Shown: positions 1 to 6,139 of the stretch, in pieces
How the letters are laid out: every line of letters begins with the position of its first letter
How positions within the stretch are numbered: position 1 is the stretch's first letter
Origin: Prevotella sp.
GTDB taxonomy: Bacteria; Bacteroidota; Bacteroidia; Bacteroidales; Bacteroidaceae
Assembly: GCA_045627725.1 (NCBI GenBank)
Contig: JAZQOH010000053.1
Span: 1,444 to 65,443, forward strand
Reading direction: 5' to 3'
Length of the DNA: 64,000 nucleotides
Program-made: the position numbers and the translations under genes
The notes under the pieces: generated by a model
What the model was told of the DNA's origin: nothing
Databases searched by the model: none
Seen by the model: only the letters and a program-made list of their open reading frames with translations

Positions 1-495
1 AAAGATACAGCATGTATTGCCATGAGAACTGTTCGTCGAGGTGAGAAACAAGAGACTGAAATGGTTGCAGAGGCAAACTGCGATTTCATGACTGTCTTCA
101 TGCTATCTGACCAAAGGGCATCAGGCGTGCTTTTGTTTGCAGGAATACTGTGGATGATGGGAAGTCTTTGGTATATGAGAAGATTCAAACCGGAGCTTCT
201 TTTGGAAGGTATAAGCTATGGTGGTATTGTCTATGCTAACGATAAGTTTATAACCTCAAAGGGTGAGCAGATTCGTCTCACACCTATGCAGCACACTCTG
301 CTTGAAATGTTCATGAACTCCGAGGATCATTCTCTTTCAAAGCAAGAGATCTGTGACCGCCTCTGGCCTAAGAAACCGGATGCCAACGACACACTTTACA
401 CGCTGATAAAACGTGTAAAACCTATCATTGAAGAGCATAGCAACCTGAAAATAGAGTCTGACAGAGGCAAAAGCTATACTTTGGAACTCAGATAG
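1..495 (+). CDS. Membrane-anchored OmpR/PhoB-type winged-helix transcriptional regulator (5' partial)
   Basis: Frame is open from position 1. A TM segment (GVLLFAGILWMMGSLWY) precedes a Trans_reg_C-like domain (LTPMQHTLLEMF..LSKQEICDRLWP..TLYTLIKRVK..IESDRGKSYTL). Confidence 0.8.
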   Translation, partial: KDTACIAMRTVRRGEKQETEMVAEANCDFMTVFMLSDQRASGVLLFAGILWMMGSLWYMRRFKPELLLEGISYGGIVYANDKFITSKGEQIRLTPMQHTLLEMFMNSEDHSLSKQEICDRLWPKKPDANDTLYTLIKRVKPIIEEHSNLKIESDRGKSYTLELR

Positions 496-504
496 TTAGG
501 TTTT

Positions 505-532
505 TGTCAGATAAATGTCAGGGAAATGTCAG
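505..532 (+). promoter_or_regulatory. Three TGTCAG direct repeats at 11-bp period (pho-box-like operator)
   Basis: TGTCAG at 505, 516 and 527, just upstream of the -7 element TAACTTTG at 566-573. Confidence 0.65.
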
Positions 533-565
533 GAAAGATATTCCCTATGAAAAGTTCTTTTTGGC

Positions 566-573
566 TAACTTTG
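566..573 (+). promoter_or_regulatory. Bacteroidota sigma-A -7 element of the DUF2723 operon
   Basis: TAACTTTG matches TAnnTTTG. No TTTG at the usual -33 spacing. Confidence 0.6.
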
Positions 574-597
574 CGGCTGATAAAAAAATTAGCGGTT

Positions 598-3459
598 ATG
601 CAAAAAAGAACTTTTACCATTATTGACAGGTGCATGGGGTGGCTCGCTTTTACCATTGCAGCCATAACTTATTGCCTCACTATCGAACCAACGGCAAGTC
701 TTTGGGACTGTCCGGAATTTATCACATGCGGCTATAAACTGGAGATTGGACATGCGCCAGGCGCGCCATTCTTCATGCTTATGGCGAATTTGTTTTCGCA
801 GTTTGCCAGCAGTCCTTCGGAGGTTGCGCGCATGGTAAACCTATTGTCTGCATTGCTCAGTGCAGGCTGTATCCTTTTTCTCTTCTGGACTATCACGCAT
901 CTGGTCAGAAGACTCATTATCTCTGACGATGATTATTCCAAGAGTAACGTGGCTTTGACGGAAGCTTGCGGACTGGTTGGCGCGTTGGCATATACGTGGA
1001 GTGACACATTCTGGTTCTCTGCTGTAGAGGCTGAGGTCTATGCTTTCAGCAGTTTCCTCACAGCTTTTGTATTCTGGCTGATATTGCAATGGGAGGATGA
1101 AGCCGATGATAAGGCGAGTGATCGTTGGATTATACTTATCGCTTATATCATAGGTTTATCCATTGGAGTGCATCTACTGAACCTTCTTTGCATTCCACCA
1201 ATGGTGCTCTTGATGTACTATAGAAAGGCGAAGAAAATAACACACTGGCGCACAGTGGGAGCCATTGCCGTAGGTACGCTGGTTGTAGCCTTGGTGCTGT
1301 ATGGTTTTATCCCAGGAATAGTAAAGATAGGAGGTTGGTTCGAACTTCTTATGACCAACACTTTTGGCTTTCCTTACAACACAGGACTGTGCGTTTATGT
1401 AGTATTGCTTGCTTTGGCTATAATAATTTGGATAGCCAAAACAAGAACCCGATTGTGGCATACCACTGCATTGAGCATCATGTCACTGCTGTTGGGGTAT
1501 AGTTGCTATGCCGTAATACTTATTCGTTCAAATGCTAATCCGCCAATGGACGAGAACTCTCCTGACAATATTTTCTCACTTTCATATTATCTTGGACGCG
1601 AGCAGTATGGCGACAAACCATTGATCTATGGTCCAGCATATACCAGCGAGGTGCAACGAGTGCCTGAGGGTGATTATCTCGTGGCACGTTTCAAGGACAA
1701 AGGTGCCATCTACCAGAAGTCTTCAGACACAACAGAATGCCGCTATGTGGCGGTGGGCAGAAGACGAGAGTATATCTATCAGCAGAACATGTTATTCCCT
1801 CGAATGCACTCTGAGCGTCATGGCGAGGCATACGAGCAGTGGCTTGGTGGAGTTGATAAAAGGAATGGACTGCCGACTCAGTGGGATAATCTGCGCTTCT
1901 TCTTTTCATATCAGGTTAACCACATGTATCTTCGCTATCTCTTCTGGAATTTCATTGGCAGGGAAAACAACATTCAGGGGCATGGTGAGGCAGAACATGG
2001 CAACTGGATTACGGGCATACTATGGATTGACAATATGCTGTTGGGATGTGATACGGACATGATGCCTTCCGACCTGAAGAATAACAAAGGACACAACGTA
2101 TTCTATGGACTTCCGTTATTGTTGGGAATACTTGGCATGATCTGGCAGATACGACGTGGTAAGGATGGCAATCAGCAGTGGAATGTGGTAATGCTGCTGT
2201 TCATTATGACAGGTCTGGCTATTGTGGTGTATCTCAATCAAACTCCTATGGAACCGCGCGAACGCGACTATGCATACGCAGGCTCTTTCTATGCTTACGC
2301 TATATGGATAGGTATGGGAGTAGCGGGATTGTCTTCATTGCTCCACAAAATGCAGTTGAAGCGATGGAACTGTGTAATTGCCATTGTCCTCGGAATGCTT
2401 GTACCCTTGCAGATGGTCAGTCAGACATGGGATGATCACGACCGCAGTGAGCGATATATGTGCAGGGATTTCGGAGCTAATTATCTGAACAGTATGCAGG
2501 ATGAAGGGCATCCTGTTATCTTTACGAATGGCGACAATGATACGTTTCCGTTGTGGTATAATCATGAAGTGGAGGGCATTCGCACCGATACTCGCGTATG
2601 CAACCTCTCTTATGCTCAGACTGATTGGTACATTGACCAGATGAAGCGCCCTGCCTATGATTCGCCAAGTCTTCCTATAACATGGAGCAGAGAGCAATAC
2701 ACAGAGGGCAGGAATGAGTTTATTGCAGTTGCCCCTGATGACAGTATCACCATAGAATATATGGGACGACCTATGACTATACGCATGAACGGAGCTACTC
2801 ATCTCACCAAGAGTGATCTGCTTGTGCTCGAAATGCTTAATCACACACCTGCCAATCGACCTTTATACATCAGCATAAGTCTTGGGGGCAGTCTCTTGCC
2901 TTTCCTGCAAGATCATCTTGTTCTTGAGGGATTGGCTTATCGGGTAGTTCCTGAAAGTGTGGGAATGATCGTTGATGTGGAACGTCTTTATGACAACATA
3001 ATGAACAGATTCCGTTATGGTGGGCTGTCAAAGCCTGGACTTTACGTAGATGATGATGCCATGCGTATGGCGCATACACATCAATTTATCATGTCGATAC
3101 TGATAACGAAACTAATGGAACGTGGGGATATGAAGCGTGCAAGGCTTGTTGCAGATAAATGGCAAAAGGAACTGCCGAACTATAATGTGCCTTACACAGA
3201 GGATGCACTTGCGATGGCAGAATGCTATTATCGTCTTAAAGAATATGGTAAGGCTGATAGCATAGTGAGGAACCTGCTTGAGCGTTCTGCGGAATGGATG
3301 GCATGGTACCAATCACTTAAATCAAAGGGGATATCTGCATCACAACATCAAAGAAACTCATGGCTCCGCACTATGCAGCACGCATTGGTTACGGCAAACA
3401 ATTACAAAAGAACACAATTGGTAGAACAATACATCAAGAACTATGAAGACAACAATTAA
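598..3459 (+). CDS. DUF2723 / TMEM260-like polytopic glycosyltransferase (GT-C type)
   Basis: SLWDCPEFI..HAPGAPFF, AVEAEVYA, ERDYAYAGSF and NGDNDTFPLWY motifs, plus many TM helices. ATG 598 preferred over 526 because it lies downstream of the promoter. Confidence 0.85.
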   Translation: MQKRTFTIIDRCMGWLAFTIAAITYCLTIEPTASLWDCPEFITCGYKLEIGHAPGAPFFMLMANLFSQFASSPSEVARMVNLLSALLSAGCILFLFWTITHLVRRLIISDDDYSKSNVALTEACGLVGALAYTWSDTFWFSAVEAEVYAFSSFLTAFVFWLILQWEDEADDKASDRWIILIAYIIGLSIGVHLLNLLCIPPMVLLMYYRKAKKITHWRTVGAIAVGTLVVALVLYGFIPGIVKIGGWFELLMTNTFGFPYNTGLCVYVVLLALAIIIWIAKTRTRLWHTTALSIMSLLLGYSCYAVILIRSNANPPMDENSPDNIFSLSYYLGREQYGDKPLIYGPAYTSEVQRVPEGDYLVARFKDKGAIYQKSSDTTECRYVAVGRRREYIYQQNMLFPRMHSERHGEAYEQWLGGVDKRNGLPTQWDNLRFFFSYQVNHMYLRYLFWNFIGRENNIQGHGEAEHGNWITGILWIDNMLLGCDTDMMPSDLKNNKGHNVFYGLPLLLGILGMIWQIRRGKDGNQQWNVVMLLFIMTGLAIVVYLNQTPMEPRERDYAYAGSFYAYAIWIGMGVAGLSSLLHKMQLKRWNCVIAIVLGMLVPLQMVSQTWDDHDRSERYMCRDFGANYLNSMQDEGHPVIFTNGDNDTFPLWYNHEVEGIRTDTRVCNLSYAQTDWYIDQMKRPAYDSPSLPITWSREQYTEGRNEFIAVAPDDSITIEYMGRPMTIRMNGATHLTKSDLLVLEMLNHTPANRPLYISISLGGSLLPFLQDHLVLEGLAYRVVPESVGMIVDVERLYDNIMNRFRYGGLSKPGLYVDDDAMRMAHTHQFIMSILITKLMERGDMKRARLVADKWQKELPNYNVPYTEDALAMAECYYRLKEYGKADSIVRNLLERSAEWMAWYQSLKSKGISASQHQRNSWLRTMQHALVTANNYKRTQLVEQYIKNYEDNN

Positions 3460-3691
3460 GAATGATGCTAAGCATCTACTATTCACACGGAAGAATTACG
3501 TTTTACTTGCCATCGCGTGCTTTCTCATTGTCCTCGGACTCATCCTTATGTCGGGTAATGGAAGCTCGTTTACTCACTTTGAGACGGACATTTTCTCTTT
3601 TCGCCGAATCGTATTGGCACCCATCATAAGCCTTACTGGCTACTTGTTGGTAATTGTCGCGATACTGTGTACGGAGAAAAATATGAAATAA
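3443..3691 (+). CDS. DUF3098 family two-TM membrane protein
   Basis: LFTRKNYVLLAI..GLILMSG..DIFSFRRIVLAPII pattern. Overlaps the upstream stop. Confidence 0.8.
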   Translation: MKTTIKNDAKHLLFTRKNYVLLAIACFLIVLGLILMSGNGSSFTHFETDIFSFRRIVLAPIISLTGYLLVIVAILCTEKNMK

Positions 3692-3761
3692 CTGACATAG
3701 GATTCCGTACACCCACATTTCACATCATTCATCCTAACAAGATTGACAACAAAACGAATAG

Positions 3762-3842
3762 ACCCACTGATTTTCAGCAGTAATGCCGATTGTCAGTGGG
3801 TTTGTTGTTCCCAAAATGAATCCCACAAGCCATGTTGGGAAC
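3762..3842. repeat. Two adjacent inverted repeats, possibly a terminator or att-like scar
   Basis: ACCCACTGA (3762-3770) / TCAGTGGGT (3793-3801) and GTTCCCAA (3807-3814) / TTGGGAAC (3835-3842). Confidence 0.45.
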
Positions 3843-4387
3843 ATTAGATTACTCCGTCCAGTGGTAGTGAGCATCGAGCGAAAGGAAGATGACCAACAGG
3901 AAGATGAAGATACCGAAGATGCAGAAGAACCAAAAGATTTCTTGATATTCTGTCGTTTTGTTGTAACGTATTGATAGTCAGAATATATTAAAGGTGGTGC
4001 AGATTCCAAGAAACAAACTAGAAACAAAAGTGTGAGGAAATACGAAAAGGAAAATATCTGCAAAACAAATCTTAACACGGAAATCAACGGCAATTTTCAT
4101 TTTCTTTCATTATGAATGATACCAGTTAGCGGAGTTGGGGGAGCGATAAATTGAAGACGAGATCTATTTGCTACGTGTTTTCACATTTGACATCTACATA
4201 GCACAAAATTGCCATTATAGAGTGTTTTCTTGCCAAATCTTGTTAAAGTTTGCACAAAAAACATCTAAAACTGACGATATTTGAAGAAAAATTAGTACAT
4301 TTGCGCCATAGGCGCTTCCTTCTCCTTGCTAGGCACAAAAAGCAAGCGAACGTAGGTCGCAATAATTGATAATTTGTACGTAGATTA

Positions 4388-6139
4388 ATGAGCAAGGTAA
4401 AGAAGATTCCATACGGAATGACAAACCTCGATACGATAATTCGCGAGGGATATTACTATGTCGATAAGACACGTTTCATTCCAAGGCTTGAGGATGAGGG
4501 CAGTTATGTCATCTTCCTGCGTCCGCGTAGGTATGGCAAGAGTCTGACCATTGCTATGCTTGACGCGTATTATAACATCAGGTATGCCGACAGATTTGAT
4601 GAACTGTTCGGTAATCTGACCATTGGTCAGAAACCCACCGAAAAGCATAACACGTATCTGGTGCTAAGTTTGAACTTCAGTAATGTCGATTCGGACAAGG
4701 ATAAGGTCGAGGAGTCGTTCAACATGAATTTATTGCAGGCCTTTAGGAAGTTTGCATATATATATCGAAATATATTACCAGAAGGTACAGAGGCAAAGAT
4801 GGAGGCACATACCAAGAGTAATGATGCTTTCAATGACCTATGTGACCAAGTAACAAAGACCGACAAGAAGATGTACGTCATGATTGATGAGTACGACAAC
4901 TTTGCAAACACATTGATGTCGTATGATGAGAATGCGTACATGAACCTCACCCATGGCGATGGATTCTTCCGCCTGTTCTTCAACTCACTCAAGGCTGCAA
5001 CTACAGGTAACGGTACAGCCGTTGACCGCATGTGGATTTCGGGGGTCAGTCCGCTCACGCTGAGCGATGTAACCAGCGGATTTAATATAGGTAATAATCT
5101 TTCCATGATGTCAGCCTACCACGAGTTGGTGGGGTTCTCTGAAAGTGAAGTTCGCATAATGCTTGAGTATTACCGCGATGCAACAGGTGTCTTCAACCAT
5201 ACTGTAGATGAGTTGATTGACATCATGAAGCCTTGGTATAACAACAATTGCTTTAGCGAGCGCTGCATTGATAAGGAGCGAATGTTCAACTCGGACATGG
5301 TGCTGTACTTCCTTATGAAGTATATCAGCGAGGAAGGCACAATCCCAGTGAACATGATCGACACGAACGTGAGCAGCGACTACGGCAAGATGCGCAAGAT
5401 GATCCGTCTGGAACAGACTTTCGGCATTAAGGCACAGACCCTTCAGAAGATAGCCGAGGATGGCTATATAGTTGCACCACTGAAGGCAGAGTTCTCCATC
5501 AGCGAGCTGCATGAGCCTCGCATCCTGCCGAGCCTGATGTACTATATGGGAATGTTGACTCACGGAAAGACTCCTGAAGGGCGTCCAGCACTTGTTGTGC
5601 CGAACCTTGTAGTGCGCGAGCAATATTACAAGTACATGAATGAGTGCTACGACCGTAATATGGAGTGGCAGATGGACTTATGGAAATTCGAGGAACTAGG
5701 GTATCGTATGGCAATGGACGGCGAGGGCGAACCATTGCTACGCTTAGTTGCCGAAAGTCTGCGTGAGAACAGCAGCACGCGTGACTTTGATGCCAAGGCA
5801 GAGTCGTTCGTGAAGGGTTATATGCTTGCCCGCATAGGTAGTATGGTGTCATATTTCATTTCCGAAACCGAACCGGACATGAATCATGGCTATGCAGACC
5901 TCTATCTGGAGCCATGGACAGAGAAGACCAGCCACGCCTACATCATCGAACTGAAGTACCTTAATACAAATGCCTCGGACGATGCAGTTGCCCAGACTCG
6001 TCTCGAAGCCATTGACCAGGCCAACCAATATGCTCAATCCAAGCATCTGCATCAACGCGCCCAATCTAAAGGGTGGAAGTTACATAAGTTCGTGATAATC
6101 TTCAGCGGTTGGAAACTCCGTCTCATTGAGGAGGTATAA
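4388..6139 (+). CDS. AAA-ATPase-like protein with C-terminal PD-(D/E)XK nuclease domain
   Basis: IPYG..YYYVDKT, RPRRYGKS (Walker A), IDEYD (Walker B), C-terminal GYADL..IIELK. Confidence 0.9.
   Translation: MSKVKKIPYGMTNLDTIIREGYYYVDKTRFIPRLEDEGSYVIFLRPRRYGKSLTIAMLDAYYNIRYADRFDELFGNLTIGQKPTEKHNTYLVLSLNFSNVDSDKDKVEESFNMNLLQAFRKFAYIYRNILPEGTEAKMEAHTKSNDAFNDLCDQVTKTDKKMYVMIDEYDNFANTLMSYDENAYMNLTHGDGFFRLFFNSLKAATTGNGTAVDRMWISGVSPLTLSDVTSGFNIGNNLSMMSAYHELVGFSESEVRIMLEYYRDATGVFNHTVDELIDIMKPWYNNNCFSERCIDKERMFNSDMVLYFLMKYISEEGTIPVNMIDTNVSSDYGKMRKMIRLEQTFGIKAQTLQKIAEDGYIVAPLKAEFSISELHEPRILPSLMYYMGMLTHGKTPEGRPALVVPNLVVREQYYKYMNECYDRNMEWQMDLWKFEELGYRMAMDGEGEPLLRLVAESLRENSSTRDFDAKAESFVKGYMLARIGSMVSYFISETEPDMNHGYADLYLEPWTEKTSHAYIIELKYLNTNASDDAVAQTRLEAIDQANQYAQSKHLHQRAQSKGWKLHKFVIIFSGWKLRLIEEV

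Follow-up and report, generated by a model that had tools for sequence, protein, structure and literature searches.

A short membrane regulator gene, three direct repeats with an exact 11-bp period, a promoter box and two genes for membrane proteins follow one another at the start of a 64,000-nucleotide (nt) stretch of a Prevotella sp. contig (hereafter the window, G000:C53:1444-65443; whole assembly 3.94 Mb). The first of the two membrane proteins is a DUF2723/TMEM260-like glycosyltransferase paralog and the second belongs to the DUF3098 family. From comparison of related loci, we consider it probable that this locus is a self-contained sensor-operator-target module, in which the regulator binds the repeat array and most likely activates the operon behind it. 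Such a regulator-operator-target relationship had been proposed in the initial annotation of the window, and it is now supported by the phylogenetic footprint of the repeats, by their fixed spacing to the promoter box and by their co-occurrence with the regulator and with the short DUF2723 gene. The resulting hypothesis, derived from sequence alone, is complete: it comprises a sensor, the targets and an operator grammar (two to four copies of TGTCAGnnAAA, the last of which lies 38-39 nt before the -7 box). In Prevotella-type bacteria, which abound in the guts of humans and animals and are genetically hard to handle, the binding site is known for very few regulators.

The repeat array and the adjacent regulator

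The putative operator array consists of three 11-bp units, TGTCAGATAAA, TGTCAGGGAAA and TGTCAGGAAAG, at 505..537 on the plus strand, and is defined by its sequence, conservation and co-occurrence. The TGTCAG hexamers of the units occupy positions 505-510, 516-521 and 527-532 of the plus strand and are exactly 11 bp apart, as the initial annotation had stated. The same annotation placed the repeats 10 bp behind a gene for a winged-helix protein; the neighbourhood is correct, and the distance is 9 nt when measured from the stop codon of the regulator gene (TAG, 493-495) to the first repeat. The family consensus of the array unit is TGTCAGnnAAA. TGTCAG by itself is not enriched in the window (47 observed vs 43 expected). 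The phased pair TGTCAG-N5-TGTCAG is present twice, both times in the array; shuffled sequences contained 0.04 pairs on average, and none of 100 shuffles reached two. Throughout the 3.94-Mb genome the triple is unique, and the only other TGTCAG-N5-TGTCAG is a lone double on contig C9.

The conservation of the array was followed in a footprint set of 80 loci from different species of Prevotellaceae and relatives, all with a regulator 60-89% identical to that of the window (81 loci with the window included). This search for TGTCAG arrays beside homologous regulators, which had been suggested together with the original proposal, bears it out: at least two exact TGTCAG hexamers in 11- or 22-bp phase are kept in 68 of the 81 loci. 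Three exact hexamers are found in 55 loci, two in 12 and four in one. The arrays usually begin 9-10 nt after the regulator stop codon, and the remaining spacer is unalignable. With the last repeat as anchor, information content comes close to its maximum in the hexamers, in two A's per spacer and in the -7 box, and is low in between. Outside the array position, the looser pair TGTCA-N6-TGTCA occurs five times in the 648 kb of these loci. More distant regulator homologues (35-55% identity) likewise have TGTCAG-ACAAA-TGTCAG after the stop codon.

A second survey covered a census set of 151 genomes evenly sampled from the family, in which the regulator was called at E <= 1e-30. The regulator is present in 28 of these genomes, always as a single copy. 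Exact triples were found in four of the 151, all inside the regulator locus, and the reversed control matched once. The composite promoter pattern TGTCAG-N5-TGTCAG-N32/33-TAnnTTTG gave 26 matches in 23 genomes and none for the reversed control; the regulator is present in 22 of these 23 genomes (Fisher p = 5e-20). This co-occurrence suggests that the repeats belong to the regulator and not to a general OmpR-family factor. The genes behind the 26 promoters code for DUF2723, TonB-receptor-like or small unknown proteins, and in some genomes a second array promoter, which is unlinked, precedes additional genes for receptor-like or small proteins.

Only the 3' part of the regulator gene (1..495, plus strand; 164 codons and the stop) lies in the window, as delimited by the open reading frame, the upstream sequence and Pfam. 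The full reading frame, G000:C53:1240-1938, encodes 232 amino acids (aa). Its first 68 codons precede window base 1 and encode the signal or first transmembrane helix and the start of the extracytoplasmic domain. The order of the protein is an N-terminal signal/transmembrane helix, an extracytoplasmic domain of ~80 aa, a second transmembrane helix and a cytoplasmic C-terminal winged helix. The topology is therefore reversed relative to ToxR, as had been noticed from the window alone. The winged helix and a transmembrane helix had also been seen correctly, but the protein has two hydrophobic helices, not one; only the second was visible because the window edge cuts the gene.

An AlphaFold (AF2) model of the regulator was built on 41 orthologues, with a predicted local distance difference test score (pLDDT) of 78. 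In this model, residues 4-45 form a helix that is hydrophobic over its first ~20 residues (the transmembrane part at the helix start), and a small helix/beta-hairpin/helix domain extends up to residue 103. The second transmembrane helix, residues 107-130 (115..186, plus strand), is supported both by the modelled helix and by the hydrophobic run GVLLFAGILWMMGSLWYM, and is followed on the cytoplasmic side by the basic stretch RRFKPE. A linker of ~8-10 residues leads to the OmpR/PhoB-type winged helix, residues 139-232 (211..492, plus strand), which was recognised with Pfam, Foldseek and a PDB profile. The sole Pfam domain of the regulator is Trans_reg_C (PF00486), matched at 41.7 bits vs a cut-off of 26.2. 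By Foldseek, the winged helix reaches target-normalised TM-scores of 0.7-0.78 against the DNA-binding domains of PhoP, SaeR and PhoB, and the fold matches include PhoB on pho-box DNA (1gxp) and ToxR bound to ompU DNA (8b4b). The PDB profile match is to a PhoB-family regulator (E = 3e-4). Neither Pfam nor NCBIfam detected a receiver or kinase domain in the regulator, and the NCBIfam matches are confined to the portion of response regulators that binds DNA, at the C-terminus. With a DNA-binding domain and transmembrane segments in one polypeptide and without kinase or receiver, the regulator is predicted to be a transmembrane one-component regulator with an N-terminal sensor and a C-terminal DNA-binding domain.

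Public data contain 2029 homologues of the regulator, nearly all of them 232 aa long. The mean majority fraction is 0.75 in the extracytoplasmic domain vs 0.82 in the DNA-binding domain; being conserved about as well as the DNA-binding domain, the extracytoplasmic domain can be argued to have a function of its own. The linker of ~10 residues between the second transmembrane helix and the winged helix leaves little room for release without proteolysis. The first helix may be either a cleaved signal peptide or a retained anchor. A lipoprotein signal was rejected because cysteine is not conserved towards the end of helix 1. Two other cysteines, C58 and C95, hardly vary among close relatives of the regulator, but a 45%-identical, DUF2723-linked relative has no cysteine in its extracytoplasmic domain, and this weakens the idea of a disulfide switch like those of the ToxR and CadC sensors. 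Locus L134 (genome G147) gives a single hint that protein and operator co-vary. The divergent regulator encoded there (L134:1400-1500) reads ...TFISRLK... in its DNA-binding domain vs ...TLIKRVK... in the window, and the repeats of that locus are TGTCAG/TGTAAG/TGTAAG at 39-nt spacing.

Behind the array, a Bacteroidota-type -7 box, TAACTTTG, lies at 566..573 on the plus strand; it is identified by its sequence and conserved spacing and begins 39 nt downstream of the first base of the last repeat. No TTTG is found ~19-21 nt upstream of it, that is, there is no -33 element at the proper distance, and in this respect too the early description of the promoter holds. Transcription probably starts at about 578-582. 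Among the array-bearing loci, 61 of 70 have the last repeat 38 or 39 nt before TAnnTTTG, whatever gene follows. A scan for sigma-70-type promoters, a method unsuited to Bacteroidota, gave nothing useful, and the same scan found no terminator-like site between the regulator and the DUF2723 gene. Rfam returned no match over window positions 1-4400 at E <= 1, i.e. no known leader RNA.

The predicted target genes and their possible exchange

The first gene behind the promoter (598..3459, plus strand) encodes a short DUF2723/TMEM260-like GT-C membrane glycosyltransferase paralog of 953 aa. Residues 37-214, which represent the N-terminal GT-C domain, match PF11028 (249.9 bits), and the protein shows eight hydropathy peaks; its homologues also carry PF28495 and PF28497. 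The protein thus has the N-terminal TMEM260-like domain in a polytopic membrane protein that characterizes the family. A start at 526 was rejected in favour of the ATG at 598, since the orthologous proteins have MQKRTF at the N-terminus and the longer frame does not survive the 2-nt indels of the leader. The same genome holds a second DUF2723 copy of 1122 aa on contig C39, to which the short protein is 60% identical in the N-terminal 300 residues and 44% identical over the rest. In the census, the long housekeeping DUF2723 is present in 148 of 151 genomes and a second, short form in nine.

The second gene (3443..3691, plus strand) encodes an accessory DUF3098 mini membrane protein of 82 aa with two hydrophobic segments. 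Its match to PF11297 (86.9 bits vs a cut-off of 25) places it in the family. It overlaps the end of the DUF2723 gene by 17 nt and is therefore probably co-translated. A DUF3098 gene also follows the short DUF2723 in L003-6, L016, L038, L122 and L123. Elsewhere in the genome a second, housekeeping DUF3098 copy stands between ftsX and bacA/uppP, the gene for undecaprenyl-diphosphatase (G000:C49:88477-90417), 2 nt from the latter. The pairing with bacA/uppP, which looks conserved, hints at a role of DUF3098 in the handling of the lipid carrier undecaprenyl phosphate.

The array is regularly associated with the short DUF2723. All nine census genomes with the short form have an 11-bp-phased TGT(C/A)AG array whose last unit lies 39 nt before a -7 box. 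Six of them carry the regulator immediately before the array and DUF2723. The other three belong to one genus; there the regulator homologue is encoded on a different contig, its stop codon is not followed by an array, and the array stays before DUF2723; by this arrangement the regulator can presumably act on the DUF2723 array in trans. Metagenomic relatives with DUF2723 proteins 71% and 62% identical to that of the window have regulators 53% and 45% identical, three repeats and the 39-nt spacing, and DUF2723 and the regulator thus co-diverge. Because the nine genomes and the 62-71% relatives share the array and its spacing, the link between array and DUF2723 is old, not accidental, and for the same reason we dropped the idea that it is merely a recent swap. 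The array is best regarded as a predicted promoter element of the short DUF2723 paralog, as old as the paralog itself.

Human TMEM260 is a protein O-mannosyltransferase (PMC10214176). By analogy, the short DUF2723 protein may use a polyprenyl-phosphate-sugar donor. A literature search for DUF2723 in combination with Bacteroides gave nothing specific. The analysis singles out a regulated, dispensable DUF2723/TMEM260-like paralog, and such a conditional spare should be easier to knock out or induce than the housekeeping copy that nearly every genome (148/151) carries.

In most relatives the array precedes a different gene. At 58 of the 80 orthologous loci it is followed by a gene for a conserved ~681-aa protein with a signal peptide, which is not DUF2723 (for example L007:5347-7392 and L070:5294-7345, along with ~56 other loci, all outside the window). 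This protein has no sequence match in Pfam, NCBIfam or PDB. Its AF2 model (pLDDT 64) is all-beta, and the best fold matches are the TonB-dependent transporters Cir, ChuA and OprC (E = 1e-12), a loose resemblance with TM-scores of only ~0.35. On this model, the protein may represent an unannotated, TonB-receptor-like outer-membrane receptor family of Prevotellaceae. Modules of the receptor type occur in Leyella stercorea DSM 18206, Prevotella merdae Marseille-P4119 and Hallella faecis CLA-AA-H145, all of them cultured, and B. thetaiotaomicron VPI-5482 is without the module. The ~681-aa receptor-like gene was not found in the genome studied here. DUF2723 and DUF3098 follow the array only in the window and in six of the 80 loci. 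The initial annotation had taken a glycosylation module as the target of the regulator. The short DUF2723 operon does carry the array, but glycosylation would be only one of at least two outputs.

In the regulator tree, DUF2723-type and receptor-type loci are intermixed, which forces at least three changes. Nucleotide homology between the two locus types begins at the regulator start codon and ends exactly with the third repeat. This shared part is 87-95% identical between loci with different cargo (L005 vs L009, window vs L007), and the flanks are unrelated even where it reaches 94.6% identity. The regulator-plus-operator unit seems to have been exchanged or gene-converted. A receptor-gene deletion that brought DUF2723 to the array was rejected, since receptor-type loci have no downstream DUF2723; receptor-type genomes hold the long housekeeping DUF2723 only. 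None of nine genomes has both cargo types, a number too small to be significant. Between the two cargo types the sensor domains are 92-96% identical. These observations allow a bolder suggestion, which we regard as speculative and rather unlikely: regulator and operator could form a portable sensor-promoter cassette in which one cargo has repeatedly replaced another, with the junction exactly at the end of the last repeat. If so, both cargos would answer the same envelope signal in alternative ways. The short DUF2723 would be an envelope-modifying enzyme that is induced under certain conditions, and the locus would offer a regulated handle on the bacterial TMEM260-like function.

Proposed mode of action and alternative explanations

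The proposed mechanism is as follows. The extracytoplasmic domain of ~80 aa would sense an envelope signal and would be coupled, through the second transmembrane helix and the linker of ~10 residues, to the winged helix. Two or three winged helices would bind the TGTCAGnnAAA units head to tail, like PhoB on pho boxes. This manner of binding is proposed because the regulator shares the fold of PhoB and its operator the pho-box pattern, and physical binding of the regulator to the array is likewise suggested by this analogy. The array would span roughly -73 to -41 of a promoter with a good -7 box and no -33 element. The bound regulator would most likely recruit RNA polymerase and so switch on the DUF2723-DUF3098 operon. 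Contact with RNA polymerase is suggested because the spacing is strictly kept and the -33 element is missing, and on this basis we think it fairly likely that the regulator is an activator of the operon.

Several observations weigh against this scheme. First, eight regulators that form a clade lack an array within 4.5 kb. Second, two census genomes break the association: G045 carries the composite pattern without a detectable regulator, and G009 has the usual target, the receptor gene, without a regulator at E < 1e-30. Third, the metagenome contig L122 keeps the array and the operon, and only a 3' remnant of the regulator. Fourth, no terminator intervenes, and transcription that starts at the promoter of the regulator gene could therefore run on into the operon and express it as well. 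Fifth, the case for activation draws solely on the position of the array, its fixed spacing and the lack of a -33 element, and no activity or substrate of a bacterial DUF2723 protein has been demonstrated in the literature that we found.

The loci concerned have further features. The array-less clade, which is well supported, consists of L031, L041, L044, L045 and L047-L050, and in several of these loci the gene of a hybrid two-component system begins 14 nt after the regulator stop codon. In L122 (2880-3000), the last ~25 nt of the regulator gene are left upstream of the array, and the regulator has apparently been deleted.

The alternative that survives best accepts the same regulator and operator and differs in the sign of regulation: the protein would repress or act dually, and the bound repeats would block or roadblock the operon until a signal releases them. 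The array does stand between the regulator stop codon and the operon, in a stretch that lacks a terminator-like site; a protein bound there could roadblock read-through. Dual action also has a precedent, in that ToxR-type proteins are known as activators of some promoters and repressors of others (PMC6733452). However, the array lies upstream of the core promoter and not over it, and the distance of 38-39 nt is kept across very divergent spacers. Such fixed spacing is typical of activators facing RNA polymerase, and the promoter has no -33 element. We therefore consider repression or dual action unlikely.

Another explanation would separate the repeats from the neighbouring gene. The classical pho box has a TGTCA-type core with an A-rich tail, in direct repeats with an 11-bp period. 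The array could thus be a pho-box-like site of another OmpR-family protein, such as PhoB, with the adjacent membrane regulator being unrelated to it. The array matches the classical pattern, the PhoB-DNA complex 1gxp is among the fold matches of the regulator, and TGTCA-N6-TGTCA is present 19 times genome-wide (vs 3 for the reversed control), so that other sites of this kind exist. Against this, 22 of the 23 genomes with the composite promoter have the regulator, vs a background of 28/151 (p = 5e-20), and the array usually begins within 10 nt of the regulator stop codon. No phosphate gene was recognised behind the array promoters, in a comparison for which the PhoB/pst promoters of this genome were not mapped. 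In addition, other intergenic TGTCA pairs of this genome differ in the sixth base and in context, for example TGTCATAT before dnaK; those detected stand there and in a non-coding stretch of C68, and none of them precedes a phosphate gene. An origin of the array as the site of another factor is accordingly very improbable.

Equally far-fetched is the explanation that the array works only for the TonB-receptor-like gene and is left over here from a cargo swap, with DUF2723 on a constitutive promoter of its own: the receptor-like gene at 58/80 loci, the intermixed locus types with their three or more changes and the homology between types that ends exactly at the last repeat would fit it, but a leftover would decay or drift, and all nine short-DUF2723 genomes, including the three whose regulator is elsewhere, keep the array at exactly 39 nt, as do lineages at 62% DUF2723 identity.

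Phased TGTCA repeats are also present in other non-coding parts of this genome. Units of the TGTCATAT type stand before dnaK (G000:C48:27980-28090), and a stretch of contig C68 (G000:C68:7459-7600) has three TGTCACACCAA units. Both could be operators of other OmpR-family proteins.

Known systems and the neighbourhood of the module

The closest parallel in organization is CadC-cadBA of Escherichia coli. The cadC gene lies directly upstream of the cadBA promoter it controls. The locus described here resembles it in two ways: sensor, membrane span and OmpR-type winged helix are joined in one polypeptide without kinase or receiver, and the regulator gene directly precedes the (predicted) controlled promoter. 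The CadC/ToxR-like receptor architecture is described in PMC5430869 and PMC11484849. Unlike CadC, the present regulator has its sensor at the N-terminus and its winged helix at the C-terminus, and this reversed order requires a signal or anchor helix and a second transmembrane helix. It is also much smaller (232 aa), has a linker of only ~10 residues and comes from Prevotellaceae instead of Proteobacteria, and its putative operator consists of three direct 11-bp repeats 9 nt after the regulator stop codon.

With ToxR and TcpP of Vibrio the regulator has in common a membrane-anchored OmpR-family winged helix and direct-repeat-type sites upstream of promoters, which here are predicted. The topology is opposite, conserved cysteines are not universal in the regulator family, and the genes under control would encode a GT-C enzyme or TonB-receptor-like proteins. 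Beside the regulator gene, no partner of the ToxS/TcpH type can be seen. The ToxR-like family is defined by an N-terminal winged helix, a single transmembrane segment and a C-terminal periplasmic sensor, an arrangement that the regulator does not have. Because its domain order is reversed, it would work like the ToxR family without being a member by architecture. The ToxR/CadC idea is thereby extended to a compact form with reversed topology that is common in Prevotellaceae (28 of the 151 sampled genomes). Transmembrane transcription regulators are widespread and enriched in Bacteroidota (PMC10269533), and the survey that reports this names no member of the present regulator type (PMC10269533).

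The comparison with PhoB and its pho boxes concerns the DNA-binding side. The fold is the same, the core is of TGTCA type with an A-rich tail and an 11-bp period, and tandem copies abut a promoter that lacks the upstream element. Unlike PhoB, the regulator has neither receiver nor phosphorylation, and its input would come through the membrane-spanning part. The array differs from the pho box in having three units rather than two, in the sixth base G and in its co-occurrence with a membrane regulator instead of phosphate genes.

The placement of an envelope-sensing regulator beside an outer-membrane receptor gene recalls the hybrid two-component systems and the extracytoplasmic-function (ECF) sigma/anti-sigma systems by which Bacteroidota control TonB-dependent receptors. 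The hybrid two-component layout also has an N-terminal periplasmic sensor and a C-terminal DNA-binding domain (PMC10269533). In contrast to the hybrid and ECF systems, the regulator contains no kinase, receiver, AraC or sigma domain, has about one fifth of the size of a hybrid protein and uses another DNA-binding family and another operator. On the target side, the short enzyme has the N-terminal GT-C domain of the human TMEM260 family (249.9 bits), and it differs from TMEM260 in being a short, accessory, regulated paralog beside a housekeeping copy of 1122 aa. A literature search on ToxR-like regulators in Bacteroides, Prevotella and Porphyromonas found nothing specific. The operator and the regulon logic appear to be new to the literature, as does the connection with an accessory DUF2723 paralog.

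The conserved module has its 3' end at 3692..3749 (no strand), as delimited by blastn of the window against L003. Nucleotide homology to this nearest relative covers C53:1228-5192 only, and the flanks beyond are unrelated. The neighbourhood of the module is variable, with flanks that differ in every relative compared. By base composition the module is not set apart, with a GC content of 0.42-0.45 vs 0.44 for the contig. The gene before the regulator (window -1357..-290, G000:C53:87-1154) encodes an AbiEii-type nucleotidyltransferase toxin (PF08843, E = 8e-20). On the other side, a stretch without a convincing gene (3692-4387, GC content 0.38) separates the module from the gene of a 583-aa protein at 4388-6139, ~700 nt downstream, for which an AAA-ATPase (PF09820) with a C-terminal PD-(D/E)XK nuclease (PF08011) is predicted.

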